This document shows, piece by piece, positions 1-62,541 of a stretch of DNA of 64,000 nucleotides (positions are counted from its first letter, which is position 1; every line of letters starts with the position of its first letter). The notes under the pieces were generated by a model that was given only the letters and a program-made list of their open reading frames with translations, was not told the DNA's origin and did no database searches. A program made the translations under genes and the position numbers. The stretch is from a virus (Duplodnaviria; Caudoviricetes), in the IMG/VR virus record IMGVR_UViG_3300024331_000007, positions 256,001-320,000 of that record; one strand, given 5' to 3'.

Positions 1-202
1 CCTCTTCGTCGGACATTTTTCTAATGTTGCGTGAAGCTTTCTGAGCACCATCGTTAAATCTTGAGGTTTGAGTCAGAACAGCCAGCCCCAATGTTTCTCT
101 GACTGATGAAACTTTTCCAGTCTCCATAAATGGTTCACGAAGATTGTGCCGCCAATATACCATATCACCACTGGCTAGCTCTACCCCATCAACATCTTTC
201 AT
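1..202 (-). CDS. KOW/SH3-like small protein, family A (3' end runs off the window)
   Basis: Manual translation MKDVDGVELASGDMVYW...RNIRKMSDEE; ATG at 202 overlaps the upstream stop (ATGA); paralogous to 420-653 and 650-874. Confidence 0.8.
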   Translation of the reverse strand, partial: MKDVDGVELASGDMVYWRHNLREPFMETGKVSSVRETLGLAVLTQTSRFNDGAQKASRNIRKMSDEE

Positions 203-423
203 GAGTGTTCCAACTTCCACAGCATTGCTTTCTCGTCAGATAATTTTACAAGTTTGTTAGGTGGAATATAAAACGTATAAGAGAGTATATCATCGTCCAA
301 AATACTAATGTTTGGGAACTCTACTTGCGCCATTTTGGTTTTTCTATTCATAGCCTGAACAACACCAATCATACTTTTCTTTTGACGATGTTTACATCTA
401 ACAATATCACCCTTATTAATCAT
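199..423 (-). CDS. KOW/SH3-like small protein, family A, with LWKLE tail
   Basis: MINKGDIVRC...KLSDEKAMLWKLEHS; start 423 chosen from ATGA overlap. Confidence 0.8.
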   Translation of the reverse strand: MINKGDIVRCKHRQKKSMIGVVQAMNRKTKMAQVEFPNISILDDDILSYTFYIPPNKLVKLSDEKAMLWKLEHS

Positions 424-653
424 GCGTTTTCCAACTTCCACAGCATCATAATTTCAGGAGATGCTTTTTTTAAATTTGTGAGGTATTTGGTCATCACTTT
501 GTCTGCTCTTACATCAGTAACGTCAATCCATTCTCCACTTGAGTATGATGATGTTACTGTTCCTAATCTGTTGTATGAGAAATTTTCTTCATCACTCATC
601 TTCCACAAGACCAAATCCCCGTAATCAAGTTTATTATTGTCAACGTCTTTCAT
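420..653 (-). CDS. KOW/SH3-like small protein, family A, with LWKLE tail
   Basis: MKDVDNNKLDYGDLVLW...EIMMLWKLENA; start 653 from ATGA overlap. Confidence 0.8.
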   Translation of the reverse strand: MKDVDNNKLDYGDLVLWKMSDEENFSYNRLGTVTSSYSSGEWIDVTDVRADKVMTKYLTNLKKASPEIMMLWKLENA

Positions 654-874
654 ACGTTTTCTAGCTGCCACAGCATTGCCTCTTCGTCGGACATTTTTCG
701 TACATTGATAGGAAGCTTTTCCACTAACATACGATTAGTTGTTCGAATGGTTAAATAAGGAGTTTCCTGCGGCGATCCTACAATTCCGATACTGCTAAAG
801 GAATTATATTCTCCGTTAATTCTGTACCAAACTATGTCTCCCACTTCCAGTATTTTTCCGTCGGTATCTTTCAC
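650..874 (-). CDS. KOW/SH3-like small protein, family A
   Basis: MKDTDGKILEVGDIVWY...KMSDEEAMLWQLENV; GTG start overlapping the upstream stop. Confidence 0.8.
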   Translation of the reverse strand: MKDTDGKILEVGDIVWYRINGEYNSFSSIGIVGSPQETPYLTIRTTNRMLVEKLPINVRKMSDEEAMLWQLENV

Positions 875-1101
875 GCGCTCTCCAATTTTGTTACCATATT
901 ATGAAGGATAGTTCTGGCAGCACGATACCAGCATTGTTCTTCACTGGTAAAACTATATTCAATTGCCTTTTCGCTGGTTGTATTCGGATCAACGTTTTCG
1001 GGAAAAATCATATACCACTCGCCCATTGATTCGGATCGGGTATGGCATTTGCAGTTTGGATAAACTGCTTGGACTATTGCTTTGTGTTCTTCAATATTCA
1101 T
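871..1101 (-). CDS. YP-AW-KLE family small protein (family B)
   Basis: IVQAVYPNC...QCWYRAARTILHNMVTKLESA. Confidence 0.85.
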   Translation of the reverse strand: MNIEEHKAIVQAVYPNCKCHTRSESMGEWYMIFPENVDPNTTSEKAIEYSFTSEEQCWYRAARTILHNMVTKLESA

Positions 1102-1427
1102 TATGACGCTTTCTTACTTCTTCGAAAAATAATCGGTGATCGCGGTTTGTCTTGTGTATTACCTTCAAGCTGATACATGATTTCTTCGTCAATGTGTTGG
1201 CGAATTTCCTTCCAAGTTTTTCGCCAGTCATCGTGACCATCCGTGCGATAGACAATCCCTAAAAGATTGCCTTTAATTTCGTCAGTGGCGTTTGAAACAT
1301 CATACACAGCCATGTTCCTTTCCCACCATCGTTTTATTTCTATTTTTGTGTACATGTTGCGAATGTATCGTTCATTCTCATCCATGTCTCCATCACCAAA
1401 CCAACCACCATCTTCAAAAATTGCCAT
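1101..1427 (-). CDS. Diverged, extended family B-like protein
   Basis: YIRNMY...LLG...WKEIRQHIDEEIMYQLEG; coupled to neighbours. Confidence 0.7.
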   Translation of the reverse strand: MAIFEDGGWFGDGDMDENERYIRNMYTKIEIKRWWERNMAVYDVSNATDEIKGNLLGIVYRTDGHDDWRKTWKEIRQHIDEEIMYQLEGNTQDKPRSPIIFRRSKKAS

Positions 1428-1630
1428 TAGCTCTCCAATTCTTCCAGCATATCTTTACGCAATGTTCTGGCGGCACTTCTCCATGCAACAGTATTCGAAT
1501 ATCCACTATAGCCCAAAACCTTTAGTCCGATTGGATCAGCGTATATCACGTATTTGACTCTTTCAACTTTGTTGTCTTCGTCACAGAATGCTTTTTTATA
1601 CACACTCCTGACGAATGATTTATTTGTCAT
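1427..1630 (-). CDS. Family B small protein
   Basis: MTNKSFVRSVY...AWRSAARTLRKDMLEELES. Confidence 0.85.
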   Translation of the reverse strand: MTNKSFVRSVYKKAFCDEDNKVERVKYVIYADPIGLKVLGYSGYSNTVAWRSAARTLRKDMLEELES

Positions 1631-1845
1631 GATTTTAAATGTGCCAGCATCTTGCGTCCCATATCAACAACGGCATCTTTCCATGCAAGATGTGGAGTTG
1701 GCCCCCACCCCATTATATTCCTGATTCCCTTTCTGCTTGTTTGAACATATACAACGTACTTATCAAACAGAATGTTATCATTCTTGCCTTTCAACTCACA
1801 TACTGCTGAGGGATAGACATTCAAATATTTGTCTTTATATGTCAT
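1627..1845 (-). CDS. Family B small protein
   Basis: YLNVYPSA...GWGPTPHLAWKDAVVDMGRKMLAHLKS. Confidence 0.85.
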   Translation of the reverse strand: MTYKDKYLNVYPSAVCELKGKNDNILFDKYVVYVQTSRKGIRNIMGWGPTPHLAWKDAVVDMGRKMLAHLKS

Positions 1846-2051
1846 TCTTTTTCCAGAATCGATACCATTTTCTTTCCAATTGCTTCAGCGGCCATGTCCC
1901 ATGCTTTTTCTTCGCTCTCCATATCGTACCCGATCATGTTTGGCGCTAATCCACCAAAATCATAGATCAAATAATACGAACCAGACGGAGATGGAATTTC
2001 TCGGCATTCCGCCTGTGGGCAAGCACCCATCACTACTTTTTTGTTTTTCAT
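1842..2051 (-). CDS. Family B small protein
   Basis: VVMGACPQA...EEKAWDMAAEAIGKKMVSILEKE. Confidence 0.85.
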   Translation of the reverse strand: MKNKKVVMGACPQAECREIPSPSGSYYLIYDFGGLAPNMIGYDMESEEKAWDMAAEAIGKKMVSILEKE

Positions 2052-2269
2052 TTTTCAAACCTTTCCAACATTGAATTTTTGATTTTATCCGCAGCGTACT
2101 TCCAAACTCTTTTCGGTGGTCCCGGTATCAACTGATTAGATATAACTGAATCGCCGTTCCTTATGTAATACAATTGGTTTAATTTCGCATGGTATCCAGA
2201 AGCCCCAAAGGTTGTTATTGCAAGTCTAGCCTTTGGATATATGCTCAGCACCAATTCCTTATTAGTCAC
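2048..2269 (-). CDS. Family B small protein
   Basis: MTNKELVLSIYPKA...VWKYAADKIKNSMLERFEK. Confidence 0.85.
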   Translation of the reverse strand: MTNKELVLSIYPKARLAITTFGASGYHAKLNQLYYIRNGDSVISNQLIPGPPKRVWKYAADKIKNSMLERFEK

Positions 2270-2486
2270 TGTTACCCTCTAACTTTCTGAGCATTGTCAG
2301 TTGAATAGTTTCCCATGATGTTTTCCAAGCATCTCTGCTGGATGTTCCATAACCCAATAGTTGATGCATCCGTGTTCCGTTTTTGCCCATCCACGTATAA
2401 TACACTCTCCACTGCCGTTTATCACCAACTACTTGTTTGCATGTGGAATTTGGATGAACTCGCAGTACATAATCTCTTGCTGTCAT
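2262..2486 (-). CDS. Family B small protein
   Basis: VLRVHPNS...GYGTSSRDAWKTSWETIQLTMLRKLEG. Confidence 0.85.
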   Translation of the reverse strand: MTARDYVLRVHPNSTCKQVVGDKRQWRVYYTWMGKNGTRMHQLLGYGTSSRDAWKTSWETIQLTMLRKLEGNSD

Positions 2487-2698
2487 GCAGCCTCTAACTG
2501 TGAAAGCATTTTTTGCCTGAATGTTTCAGCAACCTGTTTCCATGCATCTTCTTCGCTCATATAACTGTGACCAACAATGTATTCGCGATTGTGACCATCC
2601 ATTGCATAAATCACATACATGGATTCGGCGTCTGTATACTCTTGGAGCATACATATCGCAGTGGGTAATACGGATTGAACAAACTTTTTCTCACTCAT
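2483..2698 (-). CDS. Family B small protein
   Basis: MSEKKFVQSVLPTA...SEEDAWKQVAETFRQKMLSQLEAA. Confidence 0.85.
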   Translation of the reverse strand: MSEKKFVQSVLPTAICMLQEYTDAESMYVIYAMDGHNREYIVGHSYMSEEDAWKQVAETFRQKMLSQLEAA

Positions 2699-2916
2699 CT
2701 GGTTAACTCTCTTAACATCAATTCCTGAATAACTTTTGCTGCGCTATACCAAGCCTCTTCCTCTGTTCTTCCCATTCCAATCAAATCAGTTCGTGCGCCT
2801 TCTATTGTTCGACCCAATTCGTATATTCCAAATCCTCTTCCACCAACATACACTCGACCAAAGATTGCGTCGGCAAATGGAAACGTTGCATGAACAACAG
2901 CCATATCATCTACCAT
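2695..2916 (-). CDS. Family B small protein
   Basis: MVDDMAVVHATFPFA...GMGRTEEEAWYSAAKVIQELMLRELTR; start moved to 2916. Confidence 0.8.
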   Translation of the reverse strand: MVDDMAVVHATFPFADAIFGRVYVGGRGFGIYELGRTIEGARTDLIGMGRTEEEAWYSAAKVIQELMLRELTR

Positions 2917-3164
2917 TCTAGTTTCTTCATCATTTTTCTTGTAATAACATTCCATGCATTTTCCCATGCTTTCGGTTGAGATTTTGTGCTGTATCCGATC
3001 CACACTTTCCCAAATTCATCTCCATAAATTTGGTAATGGACTGTATTGTCATCGAATGTCAATTTCATGCATCCAGCGTCGGGATATACCGCAACAACAT
3101 TCTGTTGACTATCAGTATTTAATCCAGCCATTTTTTCAATAGTTGCTGGGGTTCTGTGATTCAC
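2910..3164 (-). CDS. Family B small protein
   Basis: VVAVYPDA...PKAWENAWNVITRKMMKKLEW. Confidence 0.85.
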   Translation of the reverse strand: MNHRTPATIEKMAGLNTDSQQNVVAVYPDAGCMKLTFDDNTVHYQIYGDEFGKVWIGYSTKSQPKAWENAWNVITRKMMKKLEW

Positions 3165-3385
3165 GATTCTAACGTCTCCATCATTCTCTTTGTAATCTCA
3201 TTTGCAGCATCCTGCCATGCTTCCTTCGGAGTGCTTCCTGTTCCTAAAAGGCGCTTGTATGATGATTTTGTTCCTTTGGGTTGGCGTCGAATGAATACAC
3301 CAAAATAAATACGACCACTGGTGCTCTCGCCCTGATATAGGTAAGCTTCGGGATAAATTGATAGCACATGTGGTTTGGCTTTCAT
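3161..3385 (-). CDS. Family B small protein
   Basis: MKAKPHVLSIYPEA...GTGSTPKEAWQDAANEITKRMMETLES; start 3385. Confidence 0.85.
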   Translation of the reverse strand: MKAKPHVLSIYPEAYLYQGESTSGRIYFGVFIRRQPKGTKSSYKRLLGTGSTPKEAWQDAANEITKRMMETLES

Positions 3386-3573
3386 TGTTCCAGTTTCTGC
3401 ACCATTCTTTTGCAAATTCTATTTGCAGCCTGTTCCCATACAGCTTCTTCAGATTCATAGCTAATCGCCAGATACTCCGTTCCGATCCAAACCCCAAAGA
3501 ATCCTTCAAGGCTTTGATCTGTCACAAGTCTTACGTTTGGGTATGCTGCTTTTACTATGTCTTTATTCATCAA
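3382..3573 (-). CDS. Family B small protein
   Basis: IVKAAYPNV...SEEAVWEQAANRICKRMVQKLEQ. Confidence 0.85.
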   Translation of the reverse strand: MMNKDIVKAAYPNVRLVTDQSLEGFFGVWIGTEYLAISYESEEAVWEQAANRICKRMVQKLEQ

Positions 3574-3782
3574 TTCTCCAACTTTCTCATCATCATGCGA
3601 TTTATATCAATCGCTGCATCCTTCCACGCTTCACTTCTTGATGAATGCCATTCGTTTGATATCGGCCTGCCAGTTGAAAGATCAAAAATTGCAAAGAATG
3701 TTTTAGGCGAAAGAACAGTTGTTTCACTGGTAACACATTTTGCTTCTGGATAAACTGTTAATACCAATTTTCTGTTTTTCAC
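3570..3782 (-). CDS. Family B small protein
   Basis: VLTVYPEA...SEAWKDAAIDINRMMMRKLEN. Confidence 0.85.
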   Translation of the reverse strand: MKNRKLVLTVYPEAKCVTSETTVLSPKTFFAIFDLSTGRPISNEWHSSRSEAWKDAAIDINRMMMRKLEN

Positions 3783-3994
3783 GATGCAAGTGTCCTGAGT
3801 ATTTCGTAGTTCAAATTATCCGCTGCTGCTTGCCACGCCATTTCTTTTGTGGTTGACTTTCGCATATTACGCCAGCACATTGAAAGGTTTGTCCCATCAC
3901 TTGTGCGAACAAACCACTGTTTACTGACACGAACGCTCTGAATGCATTTAGCATCTGGGTACAATGACAACACGAATTTTTGTTCTGGTATCAT
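3779..3994 (-). CDS. Family B small protein
   Basis: MIPEQKFVLSLYPDA...EMAWQAAADNLNYEILRTLAS; start 3994. Confidence 0.85.
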   Translation of the reverse strand: MIPEQKFVLSLYPDAKCIQSVRVSKQWFVRTSDGTNLSMCWRNMRKSTTKEMAWQAAADNLNYEILRTLAS

Positions 3995-4206
3995 CCTTCT
4001 AATTTCTTCAAAAATTGTTTTTGAACCATATCGTAGCTCTTTTGCCATGCTAGGCTTTCCTGTTTGTCGTCCGAATCAAGGTAGTATCTGTCGCCATGCT
4101 CATAATAACAAATGATTACAAATGAATCAGTTACTGATGGTTTTAAAAACCATACAGCCTGTGCCGTTGGATACATCTTCAATAAAGAACGTTTTGCGTT
4201 TTTCAT
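3991..4206 (-). CDS. Family B small protein
   Basis: LLKMYPTA...SLAWQKSYDMVQKQFLKKLEG. Confidence 0.85.
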   Translation of the reverse strand: MKNAKRSLLKMYPTAQAVWFLKPSVTDSFVIICYYEHGDRYYLDSDDKQESLAWQKSYDMVQKQFLKKLEG

Positions 4207-4412
4207 GCTTCCAGCTTTTCCAATGCCAGTCTTCCAAGTTCATTTCGAGCAAATTCCCACGCTGTGTTAGGTTTCAATGATGGACCGCCCATCATTGTAG
4301 GGAATCGAGTAGGCAGAGCCACATAGTAAAAGAATCTTTGACCACCAAAAGACTTTACTTTTCTGAGTTTGGCTTCTGGAAAACTCTGTAGAACTATTTG
4401 TCTTGCTGTCAT
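4203..4412 (-). CDS. Family B small protein
   Basis: VLQSFPEA...TAWEFARNELGRLALEKLEA. Confidence 0.85.
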   Translation of the reverse strand: MTARQIVLQSFPEAKLRKVKSFGGQRFFYYVALPTRFPTMMGGPSLKPNTAWEFARNELGRLALEKLEA

Positions 4413-4651
4413 TACGACTCCAGTTTCTTAACCATCTTTTTTCCAATCCCCGCAGCCGCATCTTTCCATGCTCCAGCACGAGATGTCTGATGATAACCAA
4501 GAATTTGCATGTTCTTGTTCTCATCAATGTAAGATATCATAAATCCTTTGCCATTATTGAATATCGGACGACAATGAGCATTCTTGTATGAGGCGCGGGC
4601 TACGTTTCGTTCAGCTACCGCCTGTACTTCGTTTTTCGTCGTTGTCATCAA
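4412..4651 (-). CDS. Family B small protein
   Basis: VARASYKNA...GAWKDAAAGIGKKMVKKLES. Confidence 0.85.
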   Translation of the reverse strand: MMTTTKNEVQAVAERNVARASYKNAHCRPIFNNGKGFMISYIDENKNMQILGYHQTSRAGAWKDAAAGIGKKMVKKLES

Positions 4652-4869
4652 TTCTCCAACTTTAATAAGAAGTCATTCTTTATTTCTTCTGCTGCTGTCA
4701 TCCACGCATCAGGTTCATTTATGAAACTGCTTCCGACCGTGTCAAGAATATCAGTGGTTCTGCTATTCTGAAACACCGTAAACGAACCCCACAGATACTT
4801 ACATACTGCATTTGGATAAACACCAAGAACTACATTTCTAGCCTCGATAAAATCGTTGTAATAGCTCAT
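4648..4869 (-). CDS. Family B small protein
   Basis: VLGVYPNA...EPDAWMTAAEEIKNDFLLKLEN. Confidence 0.85.
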   Translation of the reverse strand: MSYYNDFIEARNVVLGVYPNAVCKYLWGSFTVFQNSRTTDILDTVGSSFINEPDAWMTAAEEIKNDFLLKLEN

Positions 4870-5099
4870 GATTCCAACTTCTTCAATAATTTTTGGCCCA
4901 TAACCTGTTTAGCCCAATACACAGAATTTCTCCAAGCCAATATTTCATTTTTTTGACTTGCTCCCAGATTGTCAATTTGAGTTCCATAATCAAAATATAT
5001 GATATACCACCGCGTTGTTTTCCCGCGATATGTATTATTAACTGCTACACATCTGGCACTTGGAAAATGTAGTTTGACAAATTTTTCGGCCCTAGTCAT
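4866..5099 (-). CDS. Family B small protein
   Basis: FVKLHFPSA...EILAWRNS...KLLKKLES. Confidence 0.85.
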   Translation of the reverse strand: MTRAEKFVKLHFPSARCVAVNNTYRGKTTRWYIIYFDYGTQIDNLGASQKNEILAWRNSVYWAKQVMGQKLLKKLES

Positions 5100-5102
5100 G
5101 CA

Positions 5103-5300
5103 TCAAAAACCTTTCAGGATTGAGCGAAAGATGGATCGAAGCACTGCACCGTTTGACGGGAGTTTATGGAAATTGTGAAAATTGTGAAAGTCATTTGGAT
5201 CAAATTCAACAAAATGCTCGTATGTAGTTTTCCCATGTACTTGTCTGAGAATCCTCTTTCCGTCCATTGTTATTTTCTGCATGGTTTCAACAGTTGTCAT
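5103..5300 (-). CDS. Small protein with C-terminal amphipathic helix
   Basis: Ends AVLRSIFRSILKGF; coupled by ATGA. Confidence 0.7.
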   Translation of the reverse strand: MTTVETMQKITMDGKRILRQVHGKTTYEHFVEFDPNDFHNFHNFHKLPSNGAVLRSIFRSILKGF

Positions 5301-5488
5301 CTGATTCCAAACCCTTTCAGTATCGAACGACCAATTGCCAGTAAAACTTTTCCAGAAGATGGTATTACTTCAAAACATGTTATCGTAGCCTTATGTTTGC
5401 CTTTTTGAACTGTGTAAAACTGAGACACCTTATAGGTGTCTGCCATTGCCAATGGAAAAAGTTCTTTGACTCTTTGTTCGTTCGTCAT
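5297..5488 (-). CDS. Family B-like N-terminus with swapped amphipathic C-terminus
   Basis: MTNEQRVKELFPLA...KVLLAIGRSILKGFGIR; start 5488 from ATGA overlap. Confidence 0.7.
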   Translation of the reverse strand: MTNEQRVKELFPLAMADTYKVSQFYTVQKGKHKATITCFEVIPSSGKVLLAIGRSILKGFGIR

Positions 5489-5592
5489 TTTGAAATCAAA
5501 CCCTTCCAAATCACATTCAAAAGAACAGTCAACACTTTCTTGCGCGATGCTACAGGTGGGACGTATGGATTATACACTCCACCGTCCCACAT
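5485..5592 (-). CDS. 35-aa peptide with amphipathic C-terminal helix
   Basis: MWDGGVYNPYVPPVASRKKVLTVLLNVIWKGLISK; start just after the 5598 stop; tail resembles the two downstream genes. Confidence 0.5.
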   Translation of the reverse strand: MWDGGVYNPYVPPVASRKKVLTVLLNVIWKGLISK

Positions 5593-5597
5593 TTCTC

Positions 5598-6803
5598 TCA
5601 CTTCACACCCCGAAGCAAGATGCTGTCTCCGTTGATTGCTTCGCGAAGCGGAGTAGCAACGGCCTTGATTCCATTGAACCACTTGACGGCACCCGGCTTG
5701 CCATAGTTGGAAAATTCCTTCAACTGTTCGGCTGGCTTACGCAGAGTTTTTTGCACACTCTTTGTAGGATCGATGTTCGTCAAACGAGTGCTTTTGACTT
5801 CAAAAGACATTCCATTCAACGCAACATAGTGTCCTAATTTCCGAAGGCGAGTATTGTAAACCCACAATTCAGAGCATTTCAAAACTTGCGTTGCGTCAAT
5901 GCTCGTCAACTTCAATTCCTTGTACTCACGAAGAAACTTGAGTTTCGAAACAATCTTCGAGGGTGGTTTTGGTTTGCGCTGGCGAGTCTTATGCATGCTC
6001 TGCTTTTGATGACTGAACACGCTAATCTCGCTGATTGCTGTTTCCCACCATTCGATGGCCGCTTTCATCTTGCGCTTTCCTACGTGTTCATAGGACTCAG
6101 CAATTTGTGCATCTTTTCCAGCAAGTGCAGTTTTGTACTCGCTCAAATACTTCTGACAATAGTCAATCAAATCCTTTGAGCGATTCGCGGGAATTGTTGT
6201 TTCAGGGTCTTTCAGAATAGAGGAAACGGAAGGCGCTTTCTTCGCGGTTGAATAATCCGCTCCCACGAATTGATCGAATGCGTAATCCACTTCACCGCAA
6301 ACTTTACGAATCCGCGCTCTGAGATGATCCTGAATGTTTGGTTTTGATGTACTTCCTGCTTCCTTCTCTTCAATCTGCTTTTGATTAGTAAGACATTCCT
6401 TGATGAACTTCACGATGAAACGGCGTTCACGAAAACGCAGGAACAGTCCGACATGTGCCATACGCAAAACCTTGGCGACGGTAACAGAAAAAGTCAGTGT
6501 GGAATTTTTGATGGCAATAAGAAGTTCAGGAAAATGACCGCTCAAACCCAATGCGGAAAGTCCAAGTGCAATCAGTTCCTTATCTTCCTGAGTCTGTGCG
6601 TACCAGTTCAAGGCTGCGCTTAATTGTTTGTCATACTCAGTGCGAGTCCATGCCTTTTGAACATCGATAGAAGGCCACGTTGGTTCTGTTTCTCCAATGT
6701 ATTTCGCTCCCTCGCGTTTGAAATGCAAGGTACGAATGGGCTTCAAAGCCGCTGGCTGAAAAGAGCGTACAGGTCTGGAAGGCGTTTTTGCGCTGTTCTT
6801 CAT
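5598..6803 (-). CDS. Conserved T4-superfamily hypothetical protein
   Basis: 401 aa; C-terminal block ELWVYNTRLRKLGHY...SVQKTLRKPAEQLKEF recalled as conserved in large T4-like phages. Confidence 0.8.
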   Translation of the reverse strand: MKNSAKTPSRPVRSFQPAALKPIRTLHFKREGAKYIGETEPTWPSIDVQKAWTRTEYDKQLSAALNWYAQTQEDKELIALGLSALGLSGHFPELLIAIKNSTLTFSVTVAKVLRMAHVGLFLRFRERRFIVKFIKECLTNQKQIEEKEAGSTSKPNIQDHLRARIRKVCGEVDYAFDQFVGADYSTAKKAPSVSSILKDPETTIPANRSKDLIDYCQKYLSEYKTALAGKDAQIAESYEHVGKRKMKAAIEWWETAISEISVFSHQKQSMHKTRQRKPKPPSKIVSKLKFLREYKELKLTSIDATQVLKCSELWVYNTRLRKLGHYVALNGMSFEVKSTRLTNIDPTKSVQKTLRKPAEQLKEFSNYGKPGAVKWFNGIKAVATPLREAINGDSILLRGVK

Positions 6804-6809
6804 GTGCCT

Positions 6810-6838
6810 ATGATACCGAAGTTTAGAGCAAAAGTCAA
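6810..6838 (-). promoter_or_regulatory. Sigma70-type promoter for the leftward operon (predicted leaderless)
   Basis: TTGACT (6838-6833), 17 bp, TATCAT (6815-6810), then 6 nt to ATG 6803; no SD. Confidence 0.7.
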
Positions 6839-6899
6839 CGCAATCCGTAAAACCAGTGAAATCATATGCTTATTTGGCAAAATAAAATAAACTTTTTGG

Positions 6900-6928
6900 T
6901 TGCAATTCTGACCAAACTTTGCTATTCT
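6900..6928 (+). promoter_or_regulatory. Early promoter cassette 1
   Basis: TTGCAA, 17 bp, extended -10 TGcTATTCT, followed by conserved atatRRGTAGTCGAGARGGAG leader. Confidence 0.8.
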
Positions 6929-6954
6929 ATATAAGTAGTCGAGAGGGAGAAACG

Positions 6955-7272
6955 ATGAGACGGAGAGTACACACAATTGAAACCCTTCGGATGCAAGGCA
7001 AACTAAACAAAGACTTTGCAAAAACCACTCCCGACCATGCCACGGACGGAACGAAAGCCTATGATGTGATTGGCATTTCAGGTGATCATTGGCAGGTTCA
7101 CAAGCACGGATGCAGCGCAACGTTCTCCAAGCCGGGTCAAGTTTTGACTGCTGATCTTGTTTGGTCCGCAAAGACAACCGATATACCCGCGCAAGTTATT
7201 GATTCTGAACTTCTTGACATGGGTTTTGACTACACTTGCGTAGTTTTCCACAATTGCACAAAGAAATATTAA
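6955..7272 (+). CDS. Hypothetical early protein
   Basis: SD GAGGGAG before ATG 6955; MRRRVHTIETL... Confidence 0.75.
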   Translation: MRRRVHTIETLRMQGKLNKDFAKTTPDHATDGTKAYDVIGISGDHWQVHKHGCSATFSKPGQVLTADLVWSAKTTDIPAQVIDSELLDMGFDYTCVVFHNCTKKY

Positions 7273-7281
7273 ACTTTTTGG

Positions 7282-7310
7282 TTGACTTTGCCGCCAAAGT
7301 TTGATATTCT
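7282..7310 (+). promoter_or_regulatory. Early promoter cassette 2
   Basis: TTGACT, 17 bp, TGaTATTCT; same leader as cassette 1. Confidence 0.85.
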
Positions 7311-7335
7311 ATATGGGTAGTCGAGAAGGAGCCAC

Positions 7336-7563
7336 ATGAGCTACAAAGCAGCGATTAAGGTCGGTCTCGGAAACGAACGTAGCTACAACTCTCTGCGCTT
7401 TGCAACTCCCGAAGAAGCAACGGCCTATGCGAAGAATTTGTTCTCTCGCTGGATGCTCATGACTGGTTTTGAAGTCGAACCCTCTGAGGATGCCGTGAAC
7501 TATGTGTGGGAAAACAATGTACTTACGGCAATTGCCGTTACAAACCCACCGATCAGTGTATAA
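7336..7563 (+). CDS. Conserved phage hypothetical protein
   Basis: AAGGAG SD; NSLRFATPEEATAYA...RW...SEDAVNY. Confidence 0.8.
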   Translation: MSYKAAIKVGLGNERSYNSLRFATPEEATAYAKNLFSRWMLMTGFEVEPSEDAVNYVWENNVLTAIAVTNPPISV

Positions 7564-7591
7564 CCAATCTCAATATTCGGGAGAACAAACG

Positions 7592-7855
7592 ATGCGCCCA
7601 CTCAAGTTTGAAGGTGTTGCTGAAGTTGGAGACAAGATTCGCGCCTATGATTTTGAACCTATGGAGGGGCGTCCTGACCGCTATATCGAGGGCGTCGTTC
7701 GTGAAGTTGTTCAATGGGTTCGCGCTGGTGGATACAAAGCATATGACATTGTTCTGACATATGACAGCATGGGCGGAAGGCCAATAGGCACAGCAATTTA
7801 CGTTCCAATGGAAATTGGAATGGACTTCGACATTCGAGTTCAGAAAATCAGTTAA
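7592..7855 (+). CDS. Conserved phage hypothetical protein (SH3-like)
   Basis: GGGAG SD; MRPLKFEGVAEVGDKIRAYDF...YIEGVV. Confidence 0.8.
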   Translation: MRPLKFEGVAEVGDKIRAYDFEPMEGRPDRYIEGVVREVVQWVRAGGYKAYDIVLTYDSMGGRPIGTAIYVPMEIGMDFDIRVQKIS

Positions 7856-7903
7856 CCCCTTTGTTTCTGCACGAAAAAATGTCAGTATTTTCGCATAATT
7901 TGC

Positions 7904-7932
7904 TTGCATTCATGACCAAACTTTGATATTCT
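7904..7932 (+). promoter_or_regulatory. Early promoter cassette 3
   Basis: TTGCAT, 17 bp, TGaTATTCT; same leader. Confidence 0.8.
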
Positions 7933-7958
7933 ATATGAGTAGTCGAGAGGGAGACACA

Positions 7959-8279
7959 ATGATTGCAAACGCGAAAGTTTCTCAGAGGCTTGAAGGTTTC
8001 GTAGCAAAAGTACAGGCCGAAACACTTGCGTATTACGCCAAAAAGTTCCCTACGCTCATTCCTTCGATCATCGAAGTTGAAGAGGGCAGCAAGTTCTATC
8101 GCATCGTAAAAGCAGAGCGTGGTACACGTAGCGTTCACTCGTTTGTGTCCAAGGCGAACGGCGACATTTTCAAGGCTGCTGGTTGGAAGGCACCCGCGAA
8201 GCATGTTCGTGGCAACATCTTTGCCGCTGATTACGGCTGGTCTTCAATGAATGTGTATGGCGCGAAATATCTCCGCTAA
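7959..8279 (+). CDS. Conserved phage hypothetical protein
   Basis: GSKFYRIV...SVHSFVSKANGDIFKAAGWKAPAKHVRGNI, a widespread phage motif (recalled). Confidence 0.85.
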   Translation: MIANAKVSQRLEGFVAKVQAETLAYYAKKFPTLIPSIIEVEEGSKFYRIVKAERGTRSVHSFVSKANGDIFKAAGWKAPAKHVRGNIFAADYGWSSMNVYGAKYLR

Positions 8280-8319
8280 ACAATTTGTGTATGTCAACCG
8301 ATAGCAAAGGATTGAAGCA

Positions 8320-8598
8320 ATGACTGATCTATTTTCGGCAACGATCAAGCAATACATCTACGGAACATCAGGAACTGAACTTCCGCCGCCTGTTGAAAAA
8401 GTAAAGTCAACGACATTTTTATCTTTGCCAACTGAGACGAAAGAAGAATTCGAGCGCAAAGTCCAAGAATACGGCATGGCACTGCGCATCAAAGCTGCCA
8501 ATGTTACTCCACGGCCATATAGTCAACGAGATGGAATTGATTGGTCTATATCATGTATTGAACCTCGACCTTATGATTTTGATAGCAACGCGGAGTAA
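8320..8598 (+). CDS. Hypothetical protein
   Basis: 92-aa ORF filling the operon. Confidence 0.65.
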   Translation: MTDLFSATIKQYIYGTSGTELPPPVEKVKSTTFLSLPTETKEEFERKVQEYGMALRIKAANVTPRPYSQRDGIDWSISCIEPRPYDFDSNAE

Positions 8599-8604
8599 TC
8601 GTTT

Positions 8605-8844
8605 ATGTCTCAGCATAGCTCCGCTAAACAATTTGTGCAATCCCTTTACCCATCTGCGATATGCAAGTGGGTAAAGGTGCTTCCGAATGAGTTTGTGATT
8701 ACCGTTTCGTTTGCTGAATGGAACGGCTTTGAAAGTCGCCAATATAAAACAGTTGAATTGGAATGGGCAACAACTGCGATTGGCGCATGGTGCGCAATGC
8801 GCGAACTAATCAATGCGAAGATTATGGAGAAACTAAACTCGTGA
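8605..8844 (+). CDS. Family B small protein
   Basis: KQFVQSLYPSA...GAWCAMRELINAKIMEKLNS. Confidence 0.85.
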   Translation: MSQHSSAKQFVQSLYPSAICKWVKVLPNEFVITVSFAEWNGFESRQYKTVELEWATTAIGAWCAMRELINAKIMEKLNS

Positions 8845-9164
8845 TCGACAAAAAGATTCGCCCACTGCCGAAAAGACTTTCGAAGTTTCAAAGGATTGTT
8901 CTGGCGTCGTATCCAAACGCCCGAATCGGAAGTGCCGATGCTGTCAAGGAAACAATGAAACCTTATTGGGATCGCAAGTCTGGATTTGAGATGTTTGACA
9001 GCTTTGGTAAAACTTCGAAGTGGGCAATTTATACAGAGCCAGAAAGTGATCGAATTACAATCTTAGTTAACGTGATTGGCGTGAGTTCTAGCTCACAATC
9101 GAAGGCATGGGAAGATGCTTGCAACGTAATGGGCGCATTCATGTTGATGAAATTGGAGAAATAA
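8841..9164 (+). CDS. Family B protein with internal insertion
   Basis: GTG start 8841; IVLASYPNA...KAWEDACNVMGAFMLMKLEK. Confidence 0.8.
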   Translation: MIDKKIRPLPKRLSKFQRIVLASYPNARIGSADAVKETMKPYWDRKSGFEMFDSFGKTSKWAIYTEPESDRITILVNVIGVSSSSQSKAWEDACNVMGAFMLMKLEK

Positions 9165-9592
9165 TGGAAAAGTCCGTAATCTCGTCAGAACAAATGGATA
9201 ACTTGTGCTTTGCCAGCTATCAACTATTGCAGGCGATGAGTAATGTTTATGGTTCCGATCCTGCCTATGAAATGTTCCTCAAACTTGAGGAAGTACTAGG
9301 ACCTGAGGTTAAGGGCAATCTATTTTTGAAGATGTTAGACAGCCAATACACAGGTGCTGGCCCTATGCATTTCAAATTTCCAAATGGTCAGTGTGGAAAC
9401 GCCATTCTCATGATTCGAGGCGTCCGTGAATTTTCAGTTGACAAATATGGAAACAAATGGAGTCTGAAGGACGCCAAAGATGTTATCGACACGTCGAGGT
9501 TTGGTGGTATCGGAACAATTCATTTCATAACAGTTGGCGAGCGTAACGAATTTATCAAGCTGTTGAAGTCTAATAACGGCGTGACCATATGA
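9164..9592 (+). CDS. Protein with ribosomal L7/L12 C-terminal-domain-like motif
   Basis: ILMIRGVREFS...WSLKDAKDVID resembles the bL12 CTD IKxVRxxTGLGLKEAKxLVE; start 9164 with GGAG SD. Confidence 0.65.
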   Translation: MEKSVISSEQMDNLCFASYQLLQAMSNVYGSDPAYEMFLKLEEVLGPEVKGNLFLKMLDSQYTGAGPMHFKFPNGQCGNAILMIRGVREFSVDKYGNKWSLKDAKDVIDTSRFGGIGTIHFITVGERNEFIKLLKSNNGVTI

Positions 9593-9822
9593 GTCCGAAC
9601 GAAACAATTGTGAAGGCAGTCTATCCGAATGCAGAAATTCGGGAAGTAGCATCTGGAGTTTATCGAGTCTTTACGCAGCCAAGCGGATTTTCTAAAGATG
9701 GAGATTTGACTTTTAGCATTGGGCATTCTCTCGGCGCTTCATGTTTCACAGATACAGAAGACAAATGGAAGAATGCGGCAGATTCGATCAATTTCAAAAT
9801 GATGAGGGAACTTGAATTATGA
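9589..9822 (+). CDS. Family B small protein
   Basis: IVKAVYPNA...DKWKNAADSINFKMMRELEL. Confidence 0.85.
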   Translation: MSPNETIVKAVYPNAEIREVASGVYRVFTQPSGFSKDGDLTFSIGHSLGASCFTDTEDKWKNAADSINFKMMRELEL

Positions 9823-10031
9823 CACCAAAGCAAACAATTCAGCAAGTTTATCCACACGTAAATTGCCACAAAATAACATGGGCAATTGGATCGAACCTTC
9901 CCAGATTTCAAGTTTATGTAAATGGAATCTCAACTTCATTTGGAGTAACTCGTTACGCAGCATGGAAGGAAGCATTGGTTTGGTATAATAACGCCATTCA
10001 AAAACGGCTGCTGAGAAAGCTGGAATCATGA
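9819..10031 (+). CDS. Family B small protein
   Basis: IQQVYPHV...AAWKEAL...RLLRKLES. Confidence 0.85.
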   Translation: MTPKQTIQQVYPHVNCHKITWAIGSNLPRFQVYVNGISTSFGVTRYAAWKEALVWYNNAIQKRLLRKLES

Positions 10032-10273
10032 AAGAATATCTTCGTAATCACAATAATGTAACGATGTTTCTGAGTACGTGGGTTTCGTTTCCAATTTGTA
10101 TTCTTTTGGTTCATAACATGACCATTCCAGTAATGCCGTGGCATCTTTGTTTCAAGCTCGTTTTTCCAATGCTGGGATTTTGCTCAGTTGTATTTTTTCT
10201 GTTGGGTTGGATGACTGACGGAATGAATAGGCAGACCTTAAAGGAAGAATTTTTGCGGAAACTGGAATCGTAA
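10028..10273 (+). CDS. Two-TM membrane protein with family B tail
   Basis: Two hydrophobic segments, then KEEFLRKLES. Confidence 0.75.
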   Translation: MKEYLRNHNNVTMFLSTWVSFPICILLVHNMTIPVMPWHLCFKLVFPMLGFCSVVFFLLGWMTDGMNRQTLKEEFLRKLES

Positions 10274-10482
10274 TGTACAAAACAGAAAAATTCGTGAAGT
10301 CTGTTTTTCCAACTTCCAAAGCGTGTCCTTTATATGGAGGGACCTCGTTCATGATCGACGGATTTCCAGAAGGTTCAGGAATGAAACGATGGGACACATG
10401 GCATGAAACTGAACGAAAATCATGGAATGATGCAGCTAGACAGATACACAGAAATATGTTGAAGAAACTGGAGAATGCGTGA
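10273..10482 (+). CDS. Family B small protein
   Basis: KFVKSVFPTS...KSWNDAARQIHRNMLKKLENA. Confidence 0.85.
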   Translation: MYKTEKFVKSVFPTSKACPLYGGTSFMIDGFPEGSGMKRWDTWHETERKSWNDAARQIHRNMLKKLENA

Positions 10483-10688
10483 GCAAGGCTCAAAAATTCG
10501 TGAAGTCTCTTTATCCCGATGCGTACCTGCTAGAAACGCTATCACCTGTTGGCAATCATCGGTATCAGGTAGTGTACGATATTACTGGAACCTTTATGCC
10601 AACATGGTATTGGGCTAAAAAGAATGATGCATGGAAACAGGCTGAGTTAAGAATAAATCAGAGACTCATGGAGAAGCTAGAATCGTGA
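10479..10688 (+). CDS. Family B small protein
   Basis: KFVKSLYPDA...DAWKQAELRINQRLMEKLES. Confidence 0.85.
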   Translation: MSKAQKFVKSLYPDAYLLETLSPVGNHRYQVVYDITGTFMPTWYWAKKNDAWKQAELRINQRLMEKLES

Positions 10689-10894
10689 GAGCAAGGGATC
10701 AAGTTTTGGCGAGGTATCCAGATGCTGTGGTGTTCAAATCATCCGCCACCTGTATGTGGGAACTGTACTCAAAATTGAGAGCCAAACATTGCTTCAACGG
10801 ATTTATTGTTTGGGGATGTATGACTAAAGGATCGGCGTGGCAAGAAGGACTAGACTATCTTGACCGCGAACTTTTGAAGAAGTTGGAATCATGA
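10685..10894 (+). CDS. Family B small protein
   Basis: VLARYPDA...SAWQEGLDYLDRELLKKLES. Confidence 0.85.
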   Translation: MRARDQVLARYPDAVVFKSSATCMWELYSKLRAKHCFNGFIVWGCMTKGSAWQEGLDYLDRELLKKLES

Positions 10895-11130
10895 CAGATA
10901 AAGAATTTGTTCAAACCACATATCCCGATGCTGTAATGAGAACTAAAGATTTCTTTGGTCTTAACAAATTAGGCACTGACGAAAACATCTACGCAATTTT
11001 TCGCGGGGATCGAAAGAAAGCCAAACGAAACCATGCAATAACAATGTTCTGGACTAAGACGGAAGACGATGCATGGAAGCAAGCAGCCGCTTACCTACGA
11101 CAACAATTTTTGAAGAAGTTGGAATCATGA
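10891..11130 (+). CDS. Family B small protein
   Basis: MTDKEFVQTTYPDA...EDDAWKQAAAYLRQQFLKKLES. Confidence 0.85.
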   Translation: MTDKEFVQTTYPDAVMRTKDFFGLNKLGTDENIYAIFRGDRKKAKRNHAITMFWTKTEDDAWKQAAAYLRQQFLKKLES

Positions 11131-11327
11131 CTGATAAGCAGTTTGTACTCTCAATCCACGACGACGCATTTGCATCTGAGAGCAATATTTCGGGCTTCAT
11201 AGTAATCTATGACGATAACCTGCAATTCCACCAACTCAGTCAATACTGGATCATTGAAGAGGATGCGTGGAAGGATGCAGCAGATCGACTGAGGGAAAGA
11301 TTTCTGGAAAAATTGGAAAGCCAATGA
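11127..11327 (+). CDS. Family B small protein
   Basis: MTDKQFVLSIHDDA...EEDAWKDAADRLRERFLEKLESQ; start 11127. Confidence 0.85.
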   Translation: MTDKQFVLSIHDDAFASESNISGFIVIYDDNLQFHQLSQYWIIEEDAWKDAADRLRERFLEKLESQ

Positions 11328-11536
11328 CAGATAAGCAATTTGTAAAATCAGTTTGTCCGACTGCCCATCTGCGTAATACGCAGAAAAGTAAAACTGTTTT
11401 TTGGTATATTGACACTCGCCTAAAAGGTGCTTACTGGCCTAAAAAAATCTCAGGAGAGTTTATTATCAAGGGCGATGCGTGGAAACATGCAGCAGAAAGA
11501 CTTCGTATGGACATGTTAAGGAAACTTGAATCATGA
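11324..11536 (+). CDS. Family B small protein
   Basis: MTDKQFVKSVCPTA...DAWKHAAERLRMDMLRKLES; start 11324. Confidence 0.85.
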   Translation: MTDKQFVKSVCPTAHLRNTQKSKTVFWYIDTRLKGAYWPKKISGEFIIKGDAWKHAAERLRMDMLRKLES

Positions 11537-11775
11537 CGGAGGAAGCTGAACTCGCAAAACAGTTTGTGCTATCCATTTATGCTGGAGCTAAATTTGTGCG
11601 AAGAGAGGAGATGCCCAACATAGATGCATTCGCACCAACACCCGACGATTGCCAAATTATGGATGCGGATAGGCGTCATTCTTTAGCTATGAAATGGTCC
11701 TACAATGAAAATGATGCTTGGATTGACGCCCGAAATTTTATCAACTTCAAAATGATGCAGAGGTTGGAATCATGA
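11533..11775 (+). CDS. Family B small protein
   Basis: KQFVLSIYAGA...ENDAWIDARNFINFKMMQRLES. Confidence 0.85.
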   Translation: MTEEAELAKQFVLSIYAGAKFVRREEMPNIDAFAPTPDDCQIMDADRRHSLAMKWSYNENDAWIDARNFINFKMMQRLES

Positions 11776-11998
11776 ATCCGTTCGAAGCAGTTGATTACGT
11801 CCGAGGAATATATCCGTTTGCTTATTGCAAGGAAACCTTTTCCTATGGGAAAAGGGGTTTCGTTATTATGGACGCGGAACGCGGCTCAGGTCATGACGAA
11901 GAATTTTTAACTGGATGGAGCTATACCACAAGAGAACAGGCGTGGGTGAAGCTGTGAGATACATTCATCTCAACATGCTTAGGAAGTTTGAATCATGA
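11772..11998 (+). pseudogene. Frameshifted family B member (1-nt deletion near 11946, or sequencing error)
   Basis: ORF stops at 11957 after EQAWVKL; adding one base gives EQAWVEAVRYIHLNMLRKFES, ending at the ATGA junction 11995-11998. Confidence 0.75.
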
Positions 11999-12216
11999 CT
12001 GACAAGGAGTTTGTTATATCAGCTTATCCCAATGCCGAATGCGATGACAGTCGGCTATTATTTGACCGTAATGGCGTTTTCATGTATGCAATTTATTTGG
12101 CGGGTAGCAAACCTCGTTCAAGTATTTCGGCAATGTGGGCGGAATCCGAAGAACAGGCATGGAAGGAGGCAGCGGACATTATCAGATATGATCTTCTGAG
12201 GAAGTTTGAGTCATGA
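11995..12216 (+). CDS. Family B small protein
   Basis: MTDKEFVISAYPNA...SEEQAWKEAADIIRYDLLRKFES. Confidence 0.85.
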   Translation: MTDKEFVISAYPNAECDDSRLLFDRNGVFMYAIYLAGSKPRSSISAMWAESEEQAWKEAADIIRYDLLRKFES

Positions 12217-12413
12217 ACGAAGACATGGAATTTGTAAAACGATTGTATCCAACCGCAGTGTATGATTCTCATGCATTTTGGGTTTGTGCGGACACAATTG
12301 AGGCTGGTAAGAAACGCACATATATTTTAGGTATCGGTGGAAATGCAAAGAATGGTTGGACCCATGCAGCGCAACACCTTCGTAATAGGGTGTTGCGCCA
12401 ATTTGAAAGTTAA
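12213..12413 (+). CDS. Family B small protein
   Basis: FVKRLYPTA...GIGGNAKNGWTHAAQHLRNRVLRQFES. Confidence 0.85.
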   Translation: MNEDMEFVKRLYPTAVYDSHAFWVCADTIEAGKKRTYILGIGGNAKNGWTHAAQHLRNRVLRQFES

Positions 12414-18209: not shown

Positions 18210-18539
18210 ATGAATCATACCAGCGAAGAAATGATGGCGATAGCGAAGCCAAATTGTTTGATCTGTGTGCCACTAATCAAACCGTGGATAGGCATTGTTA
18301 TAAAGTATGCCGAAGATGACTATGACGAAGCTATCTTCTACCCAAACCCAGATCAGGTAAGAATTTCATCTGGAACAAGAATTGTTAGCAGGTTGTTATC
18401 TGAAGCTGACTCAGATGAAATTAAGAGCGATTGCCAAAAGGCCGGTTCAAACAAAGTTCTATCAGTTGATACTGACTGTTCAACCATAGCCATTTTATCT
18501 TGGGACGAATGGGTTGATTATATGAAAAAGCCAGCTTAA
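18210..18539 (+). CDS. Hypothetical protein
   Basis: 109-aa ORF with AAGGA SD. Confidence 0.7.
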   Translation: MNHTSEEMMAIAKPNCLICVPLIKPWIGIVIKYAEDDYDEAIFYPNPDQVRISSGTRIVSRLLSEADSDEIKSDCQKAGSNKVLSVDTDCSTIAILSWDEWVDYMKKPA

Positions 18540-18551
18540 CCGCTGGCTTTT
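18526..18551. terminator. Bidirectional intrinsic terminator
   Basis: AAAAGCCAGC-ttaacc-GCTGGCTTTT between convergent genes. Confidence 0.8.
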
Positions 18552-19234: not shown

Positions 19235-19299
19235 GTGCTGTTGCTCCACGAAGCGATAGGGCAGTTGGGTCTTCACACTGCGAACTGCGATAGTATTTA
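19235..19299 (-). promoter_or_regulatory. Late promoter plus structured 5' leader of a homing endonuclease (copy 1)
   Basis: ATAAATAC, stem GCAGTT/AACTGC, SD GGAG inside hairpin; homologous to 42490-42556. Confidence 0.65.
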
Positions 19300-25619: not shown

Positions 25620-25649
25620 TCGCCTACCTGAATCACTTCGATTTATTCA

Positions 25650-26042: not shown

Positions 26043-27061
26043 TACAAGCCCTTGTAAATCTCCAGAAGAAGATTGGAATCATAGAACTCACTGGAAATAT
26101 TTAGTAACTGCCCTTGTACGATTGTATCAACGGATTGAAATTGAATATTACCTCCCGGTGCTAAATCGTCGCTGTGTAAATCTTTCTTCATTGTTACCAA
26201 ACTGAGTTCGCGAAGTTCGTATTCCTCAATTAAATTCTCTTTGAGATATGTCGCTTCTTCATATGAAACATCTGTATCTAAAAACAGCTTTATATATCCC
26301 TGACGAGGGAGAATTGAAGGATCGGAAACTAGATCGCTTATTTTCATAGTGCGATATTTTGGTGCTTTGGGCCACGGAATATATGTTGGTTCCTCACCCC
26401 ACGGCAGAATCATCATGCCACGATTGTCATCGCCTGCATCACCGAAGTTGTGCGGGAATGCATTACCAATGTATGATATATTACCTCGATGCTGACGCAT
26501 GTGGAAGTGACCCGTAAACACATGATGGTATTCCGAAAATTGATCGGCTCGCAACTCTCCGACTTCTGGCATTTCTACCATAGCATTCATCAAAAATTTT
26601 GGAAGCTCGAAGTGACCAAACATGTATGTGCCTTTCTTCTTAAAAAGCTGTTTATGCTCATTGCCAATTAACCACGGCACAAACACAACATCATCAATTG
26701 TTTCGATATCATTGATGATTTTAATGTTTGGAATATGTTCAGCCCATGCAATGCTGCTGATTGATCTTTGGTCACGATAGAAAAGGTCATGGTTACCGGG
26801 AAGCATGATAATACGATCAAATGCATCGCTCAGGATACGCAAACCCCGCAGGCCATAATTCATTGTAACCAGATTTGTGTTGTTTCGATTGTGAAAATAA
26901 TCTCCGAGAAACAGACAAATGTCACATCCGTTTTTTTGTGCCTCGCCCACAAACCAGTCCATATAATCAAGACAATCTTGATTGTGAAGTTGGCTGTTCG
27001 TTTTAAGACCCATGTGAATATCTGTAAAAACTGCCGCTTTCTTGAATAGTTGTGTCATCAT
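26042..27061 (-). CDS. gp47: Recombination endonuclease nuclease subunit (SbcD/Mre11-like)
   Basis: Metallophosphoesterase motifs DIH, GDYFH, GNHD, GHFE, GHFH. Confidence 0.95.
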   Translation of the reverse strand: MMTQLFKKAAVFTDIHMGLKTNSQLHNQDCLDYMDWFVGEAQKNGCDICLFLGDYFHNRNNTNLVTMNYGLRGLRILSDAFDRIIMLPGNHDLFYRDQRSISSIAWAEHIPNIKIINDIETIDDVVFVPWLIGNEHKQLFKKKGTYMFGHFELPKFLMNAMVEMPEVGELRADQFSEYHHVFTGHFHMRQHRGNISYIGNAFPHNFGDAGDDNRGMMILPWGEEPTYIPWPKAPKYRTMKISDLVSDPSILPRQGYIKLFLDTDVSYEEATYLKENLIEEYELRELSLVTMKKDLHSDDLAPGGNIQFQSVDTIVQGQLLNISSEFYDSNLLLEIYKGL

Positions 27062-27300
27062 TCCTCAAATTTTTCTAATGTCTTTTCTAAAATACGTTGC
27101 CATACATCTTCCCATACATCATCTTCATTTGAATGCCAACCAGATGCCGAAAAATATGTTCGCCAGTTGATATTTGGGTCATCATATGGCTCTTTCATAA
27201 GGCAATAATCTGTTATGTCTCCCTCCGCATCGTAATGCACATGGATAAAACAATTGGGGTATATTGCCAAAATCTTGTTTTTAGTTTCTTCTACATCCAT
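27058..27300 (-). CDS. Family B small protein
   Basis: MDVEETKNKILAIYPNC...EDDVWEDVWQRILEKTLEKFEE; start 27300. Confidence 0.8.
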   Translation of the reverse strand: MDVEETKNKILAIYPNCFIHVHYDAEGDITDYCLMKEPYDDPNINWRTYFSASGWHSNEDDVWEDVWQRILEKTLEKFEE

Positions 27301-62500: not shown

Positions 62501-62541
62501 GAAGGTGTTCCGCTTTTCTGACTAAATACGCCAGAGGTATT

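Follow-up and report, generated by a model that had tools for sequence, protein, structure and literature searches.

More than 100 tiny genes on at least four unrelated folds end in one short helix, ML.KLE, in a soil jumbo phage

Tandem gene families with a constant terminal module are known from large DNA viruses, such as the poxvirus ankyrin families with their F-box-like PRANC module and the MGF360/505 families of African swine fever virus (ASFV). Short, portable C-terminal peptides are also known from AAA+ protease systems, in which the ssrA tag and the ClpX-binding peptide at the C-terminus of SspB act as degron or tethering peptides. Here we describe a 64,000-nucleotide (nt) stretch of viral DNA (the window), bases 256,001 to 320,000 of the 359,890-bp virus record IMGVR_UViG_3300024331_000007, which is about 90% complete. 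Between positions 199 and 12,413, the window carries two divergent arrays of very small genes around a 401-amino-acid gene (5598-6803). Across the whole genome, more than 100 tiny genes, on at least four unrelated folds, end in one short helix, ML.KLE. The likeness to the poxvirus and ASFV families lies in the many paralogs in terminal or early regions, the variable bodies with one constant end, and the shifts of copy number by unequal recombination. However, the phage units are only 60 to 110 amino acids long and translationally coupled, and their constant part spans about 7 to 11 residues on unrelated folds. Furthermore, they have no known ligase or protease partner and no sequence relation to the viral families.

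An earlier note on this DNA had described a C-terminal KLE(S) tail as portable across unrelated scaffolds. Rereading the translations confirmed the tails MLRKLES in family B, AMLWKLEHS and MMLWKLENA in family A (which also shows AMLWQLENV in the window), and EFLRKLES in the gene product of 10028-10273. The latter had been called a two-transmembrane protein, and two hydrophobic 19-mers are indeed present. The tail-bearing genes of the window are listed below.

871..5099, minus strand: family-B array of the minus arm, 18 genes of about 63 to 84 amino acids, nearly all with ATGA, GTGA or TAATG overlaps
650-874, 420-653, 199-423 and 2-220 (running off the window start), minus strand: four family-A genes, SH3/KOW-like barrel plus a helix ..S.EEAMLWKLEN.
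8605..12413, plus strand: family-B array of the plus arm, broken by 9161-9592 and by the membrane gene 10028-10273
10028..10273, plus strand: 81-amino-acid protein with hydrophobic 19-mers at residues 11-29 and 40-58 and the tail EFLRKLES
12213..12413, plus strand: array-terminal family-B gene, uncoupled, facing a convergent next gene
27058..27300, minus strand: dispersed family-B gene overlapping the start of an Mre11-like gene (26042-27061)

The ending common to family B, family A, the membrane proteins and an alpha/beta family is a hydrophobic residue followed by L-x-x-L-E and 0 to 3 further residues. In its strict form, [MLFIV][MLFIV]xx[LF]E located 0 to 3 residues from the C-terminus, it was found in 68 of 637 non-overlapping open reading frames (ORFs), compared to 1.7 expected from the internal frequency of the motif. 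When the B profile was compared with the A profile using hhalign, only 9 tail columns could be aligned (~~ML~KLEs / EaML~kLEn, P 9e-4). Because this comparison aligns the tail only and the folds predicted for the two families differ, the tail is common to unrelated scaffolds, and the portability proposed in the earlier note is upheld. BLASTP clustering of the bodies stripped of their tails lacked the sensitivity to delimit families. A literature search returned nothing on such arrays or tails, and to our knowledge a tail shared across folds has no precedent in phages.

The peptide is conserved more tightly than the DNA that encodes it. The tail Leu has the same codon in 31 to 32% of pairs, and synonymous positions vary. 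In a dispersed copy at genome position 27590, five of the six codons of LKKLES differ, and the tail peptide is retained with codons that do not form a Shine-Dalgarno (SD) sequence. At the end of the plus-arm array, the gene 12213-12413 keeps RVLRQFES even though it is uncoupled, again with non-SD codons (TTT GAA AGT TAA), and the dispersed gene 27058-27300 ends in TLEKFEE. The tail is also kept in 119 of 139 single-domain metagenomic relatives. Between orthologs, the identity was 64% in the head, 57% in the centre, 71% in the helix and 66% in the tail. Since synonymous codons vary and the tail persists in uncoupled and terminal genes, in relatives and in orthologs, it is a predicted helix that protein-level selection keeps on unrelated folds.

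Family B proteins have about 70 residues, with a consensus start of MT.K.FV...YP.A.C and an end of AW..A...I...ML.KLES, in which W is the sole invariant residue. A profile built from 32 window copies matched 81 places in the genome and 1,210 representative clusters in public metagenomes (E<=0.001); the top matches P0001 and P0002 were rejected as unrelated repeat proteins. None of 116 B members matched Pfam or PHROGs, no sequence relative was found in the PDB, and family B is a previously undescribed family. The AlphaFold model (AF2) comprises a helix at residues 3-10, strands at 14-21 and 24-31, short bridges and a helix at 49-69, with a mean confidence score (pLDDT) of 92.6. The nearest structures are almost all double-stranded RNA-binding domains (dsRBDs; VIA Z of 5 to 6.3, Foldseek E of only 0.07 to 1), aligned over 55 to 66 residues with a root mean square deviation of 2.2 to 3.2. 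Fold searches in BFVD and Atlas gave only weak and uninformative matches, such as Lar-like proteins and RaiA.

The resemblance to the alpha-beta-beta-beta-alpha fold of the dsRBD, notably to its protein-binding type that does not bind RNA, is limited in several respects. The PF00035 (dsrm) profile had no match anywhere in the genome at E<=1. In a dsRBD, a basic KKxAK at the start of alpha2 contacts the dsRNA; this signature is absent from family B, where the consensus reads (S/T)-x-E-(E/D)-A-W-K-x-A-A. Because the profile does not match and acidic residues, followed by A-W, replace the basic signature, we call family B dsRBD-like rather than a dsRBD. The idea that the tail is simply the canonical end of a dsRBD, with a similar ..LKKLELE at the C-terminus of E. 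coli RNase III, was not supported, since the alignment with 7r97_B stops at model residue 63 and the last helix of B is about 7 residues longer than that of RNase III.

Among the closest dsRBDs are the ADAR1 dsRBD3 dimer, Staufen dsRBD5 and PACT D3, which are protein-binding or dimeric. This is consistent with an oligomerisation handle, in which tails would pair to give homo- or hetero-oligomers of A and B proteins, or hold them at the membrane through the tail-bearing membrane proteins, and the occurrence of a short amphipathic helix on soluble and membrane proteins alike fits such a role. However, seven to ten residues are short for a stable coiled coil, and the similarity to dimeric dsRBDs exists at the fold level only. 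We consider this role unlikely.

The centres differ among paralogs yet are maintained within each, as would be expected if every protein had its own target. Where B domains are internal, in distant multi-domain relatives, they retain AW..A but are missing the KLES ending; the tail thus belongs to the stand-alone, arrayed form of B. Four metagenomic proteins (P0013, P0020, P0106 and P0127) contain 3 to 4 tandem B domains per polypeptide, and one of them has C-terminal transmembrane segments. One B gene of the window is cut short.

11772..11998, plus strand: B gene ending in ..AWVKL with a stop at 11957, caused by a 1-nt deletion relative to contig L010

In this gene, the tail MLRKFES and the ATGA junction persist in another frame (about 11958-11998), and the 39 nt past the break are near-identical to L010. 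A recent pseudogene, a frameshift site or an error in the assembly would each account for it.

Family A has about 30 copies in several arrays across the genome. Its AF2 model (pLDDT 92.2) shows a five-strand SH3/KOW-like barrel followed by a helix at residues 63-72, and it matches the Spt5 KOW, eL21, PWWP and myosin SH3-like domains with TM-scores of 0.5 to 0.67. The A members of the window had no Pfam match, and one member elsewhere (L001:3241-3414) scored 26.8 bits against the KOW profile PF00467, above the cut-off of 22.3. L..LE is invariant or nearly so across 28 aligned copies, and the tail is kept in all four A relatives from outside this genome. In addition, six tail-bearing proteins with one or two transmembrane segments end in (F/M)L.KLE., and an alpha/beta family of four (125.6-126.4 kb and 138.3 kb) ends in E(Y/F)VL..LEW. 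The membrane gene 10028-10273 is conserved, in two copies, in the related contig L009.

Nearly every array gene stops on the start of the next gene through an ATGA, GTGA or TAATG overlap. An overlapping start was found behind 83 of 105 tail genes (71 of the xTGA type and 12 of the TAATG type). In coupled genes, the tail Leu codon ends in G in 79% of cases, compared to 45% for internal Leu of the same small genes (p 7e-9), and the tail Glu is GAG in 57% compared to 28% for internal Glu (p 1e-7). The L-E codons are thereby biased to (C/T)TG-GAG, which yields GGAG. With 5 nt between the end of the Glu codon and the overlapping start, 27 of 39 genes contained GGAG, whereas it occurred in 8 of 39 at 2-nt spacing and in 5 of 22 uncoupled genes, with about 13% expected. 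The L-E amino acids, however, are kept in all three spacing classes. Among the 88 remaining coupled genes, C-termini are diverse and GGAG is found in just 11.

The SD sequence is thus a spacing-dependent codon overlay on a peptide conserved for other reasons. This bears out half of the proposal in the earlier note that the tail is a constraint of coupling: the L-E codons do favour GGAG at 5-nt spacing, but coupling shapes the codons and does not create the tail, because L-E is kept in every class and 88 coupled genes lack the tail. The overlaps and the selected GGAG agree with known translational coupling through 4-nt ATGA overlaps with an SD in the upstream gene. However, such coupling explains the codon choice only, and the conserved peptide is missing from the other coupled genes of this genome.

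A purely translational origin would make the tail either a side effect of placing an SD within the preceding gene or a signal in the nascent peptide that adjusts termination and re-initiation at ATGA. Besides the 83 overlapped genes and the strong codon bias, the nearly fixed distance from motif to stop and a homolog of initiation factor IF1 inside the array fit such an origin. Against it, L-E is equally kept at 2-nt spacing and in uncoupled genes, where the codon bias vanishes, and the M-L-x-K positions are too far upstream for an SD. Furthermore, coupling persists in a B subfamily ending in ..KLAS. We regard this explanation as quite improbable.

The earlier note had also reported a repeated DNA junction at the tail. 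Exact copies were indeed found at the following sites.

10872..10895, plus strand: 24-nt junction copy 1, spanning the end of 10685-10894 (..LLKKLES), its stop and the start of 10891-11130
11108..11131, plus strand: 24-nt junction copy 2, spanning the end of 10891-11130 (..FLKKLES), its stop and the start of 11127-11327
4866..4886, minus strand: 21-nt core on the other arm, end of 4866-5099 (..LLKKLES) over the start of 4648-4869

Of the 24-mer, only the copies at 10872 and 11108 are exact. Exact copies of the 21-mer lie at 4866-4886 (minus), 10874-10894 (plus) and 11110-11130 (plus), and 100 shuffles contained none. The repeat is not a separate element, however: it consists of the homologous gene end and following gene start (..KKLES, stop, MTDK..) that neighbouring tandem paralogs have in common. 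Three of the four LKKLES genes, and likewise three YKLENA genes, have identical 21-mers despite saturated bodies, and tail codons are shared more often between neighbours (0.47) than between distant copies (0.36).

Comparison with related contigs indicated that the arrays change by whole genes at these junctions. L009 is 72 to 77% identical to 10011-11540. It carries an additional copy of the membrane gene, an extra whole B gene and a non-orthologous replacement, in which the identity ends about 7 nt or less past the start and returns in the last tail codons. A 36-nt exact match links non-orthologous junctions of this genome and L009. L016 is syntenic with the minus arm (the 401-amino-acid protein is 84% identical) and differs by at least 6 whole-gene indels, of which 4 keep the 4-nt overlap. 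A breakpoint off the junction also exists. In the 19.5-kb viral contig L011 (8434-9022), a B head, MTDKQLVLSVYPDAEVV, is in frame with a Cys-rich ORF that has a signal peptide, while the B helix and tail persist downstream in another frame; a foreign gene has been inserted inside a B gene.

The suggestion that the junction lets genes be shuffled as integron-like cassettes was therefore borne out in part. Whole-gene indels, one replacement and breakpoints within a few codons of junctions were observed, but the synonymous sites vary, and neither a hairpin nor an integrase was found. No tyrosine recombinase (PF00589) was detected in the 359,890-bp record with a search that detected 14 of 14 controls. 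Ten 70-nt junctions gave folding z values of -1.76 to +1.09 relative to shuffles, with no common structure and no attC-like hairpin. Like integron cassettes, which carry attC and are moved by IntI, the arrays gain, lose and replace whole genes at boundaries that share sequence. Unlike them, they show conservation limited to coding needs, and their genes overlap instead of being separated by sites.

A site-specific recombination site used by an unrecognised recombinase would fit the whole-gene changes with junction breakpoints and the exact sequence common to non-orthologous positions. The missing recombinase, the junctions that fold no better than shuffles, the variable third codon positions and the insertion within a B gene of L011 all speak against it, and we consider it very improbable. 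Because synonymous sites vary and both the conserved hairpin and the tyrosine recombinase are absent, we read the exchange as homology-guided unequal recombination and short-patch conversion at the tail-plus-head block. In line with recombination, a gene pair for a Rad50/SbcC-like protein (SMC_N, 594 amino acids) and an Mre11/SbcD-like protein (Metallophos, 339 amino acids) lies at 23835-27061. The Mre11-like gene is coupled, at its start, to the dispersed B gene 27058-27300.

The explanation we favour is composite, and we hold it about as probable as its negation. The tail would close an amphipathic helix at the C-terminus, of which it makes up the final two to three turns (h-L-x-(K)-L-E). 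Protein-level selection would hold it in several unrelated families of small genes, probably early genes of a soil jumbo phage, and tandem duplication would pass it down within each family. The exact repeats of 21 to 36 nt are homologous end-plus-start blocks of adjoining paralogs. In coupled arrays, the L-E codons are recruited as the SD GGAG for the overlapping downstream gene where the spacing suits. Because the tail-plus-head block is the sole nucleotide homology between otherwise saturated paralogs, it may guide unequal homologous recombination or short-patch conversion, by which whole genes are added, removed or swapped. The same recombination may have grafted the tail onto the SH3-like, membrane and alpha/beta scaffolds. 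The hydrophobic face (h, L, L) would pack on the protein's own domain, in B on the equally conserved N-terminal helix, and no dedicated tag reader would then be needed.

The main rival to this composite explanation is a shared docking or degron tag, for which the window and the record offer candidate readers.

63017-63619, plus strand: DnaJ-like gene (J domain and DnaJ_C)
from 63665, plus strand: start of a ClpA-type double-AAA+ gene (769 amino acids), continuing past the window end at 64000; also L012:1665-3974

The ClpA-type protein has a Clp_N domain, two AAA+ domains and D2-small. A ClpP of 187 amino acids (L018:1986-2549) is encoded next to a superoxide dismutase gene and a dCMP-deaminase-like gene, not next to capsid genes. 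The DnaJ-like, ClpA-type and ClpP proteins possibly form a phage protein-quality-control set. In addition, a permuted transfer-messenger RNA (tmRNA) was found at L017:2104-2480 (genome about 146.1-146.5 kb; Rfam RF04321, 87 bits). Its tag, as predicted by ARAGORN, is AVNNSGRNAEIATYTVALNRVAVPVA and shows no likeness to the ML.KLE(S/NA) tail.

In the tag explanation, one reader (the phage ClpA-type protein with ClpP, DnaJ, or a host machine) would bind the exposed face of the helix, and the diversified bodies would be an adaptor library or a co-regulated early proteome. It would account for a single motif recurring on four or more folds, the short cytoplasmic tails of membrane proteins among them, and for conservation that goes beyond the SD bases and persists without coupling. 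A tag thereby withstands the refuting condition set in the earlier note, conservation confined to SD-forming nucleotides. The phage-encoded ClpA-like protein, ClpP, DnaJ and tmRNA agree with it, as do the paralog centres, which differ strongly yet are each conserved in the ortholog, as specific binders would be. Like the degron and tethering peptides of AAA+ proteases, the tail is a short portable C-terminal peptide on any scaffold. Unlike them, it lies in a predicted folded helix, modelled with confidence as integral to both A and B, and not in a flexible extension. Furthermore, the residues common to all families are hydrophobic ones plus one Glu, with no specific polar signature in common, and this Glu is replaced by A, G, Q, N or K in many B copies. 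Because anything from 0 to 6 residues can separate the tail from the C-terminus, a reader of the free carboxylate is unlikely. No link from the tail to the Clp or DnaJ genes was found in this analysis, and no partner was identified. We regard a shared tag as possible but doubtful. Its boldest form, in which ML.KLE is a universal handle read by one machine, most plausibly ClpA-like/ClpP, and the dsRBD-like and SH3-like bodies bind targets for unfolding or degradation, seems rather unlikely to us. The targets would be, for example, host defence proteins, and the arrays would be a phage counterpart of the poxvirus ankyrin/F-box libraries.

Several points weigh against the composite explanation. 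In the membrane proteins, the tail comes after a polar linker, where no globular domain is available for packing. This is easier to reconcile with a binding motif than with a structural cap, and it is the strongest reason to think that the tail has a binding partner. Finding the same six residues on four folds is more than a generic amphipathic helix would lead one to expect, and the grafting of the tail between scaffolds is a step that we infer. The gene-order comparison covered only three related contigs, in which, at 65 to 77% identity, most breakpoints can be placed only to within a few codons. Moreover, selection would leave whole-gene indels wherever the crossovers fall.

The remaining genes of the array region carry no tail or lie between the arrays.

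1101-1427: unrelated 108-amino-acid gene within the minus-arm B array, no tail
9161-9592: 143-amino-acid gene in the plus-arm B array, no tail
5103..5509, minus strand: two small paralogs (..SILKGF) opening the minus arm, no tail
5598..6803, minus strand: conserved 401-amino-acid protein, phrog_11903, between the divergent arrays

The layout with the 401-amino-acid gene between divergent arrays is also found in L011, L016 and an 11.6-kb ENA contig. A DUF7717 protein (7923-8279) shares the divergent region with the phrog_11903 protein. Beyond the start of the window, the minus-strand B array goes on as far as about 245,600 in genome coordinates. The IF1 (InfA) homolog, of 71 amino acids, lies within the mini-gene array about 500 nt ahead of the window start (L006:11288-11503, genome 255288-255503; PF01176, E 8e-18), and is 97% identical in L016, where the neighbouring genes are 30 to 75% identical. 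Genes of the homing-endonuclease type (NUMOD3; SegE-like GIY-YIG) are scattered in the window at 18536-19276 and 62428-62994.

Cultured phages gave no match to the record by DNA or protein (megablast, tblastn), and a search for related loci with one protein as query returned no relative. Near-identical pieces of the genome are present in four soil metagenome runs, one of them perhaps the source, and no structural variant was seen in the near-identical short contigs of these runs, a comparison in which contig breaks and uncovered parts carry no evidential weight. Two apparent joints in these data came from another 68-kb contig with only junction-like segments in common.

About a fifth of the genes of this jumbo phage belong to mini-gene families that no database describes. 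The helix common to their unrelated folds offers a handle for function and could be used as bait for a common partner. It is also a natural example of three constraints acting on one sequence stretch: the protein it encodes, the ribosome-binding site it contains and the homology it offers to recombination. Should the tail turn out to be a tag, it would reveal a previously unseen means by which phages arrange their early proteome. As a purely structural and recombinational module, it would still explain how such arrays can grow and trade genes with no recombinase dedicated to the task.

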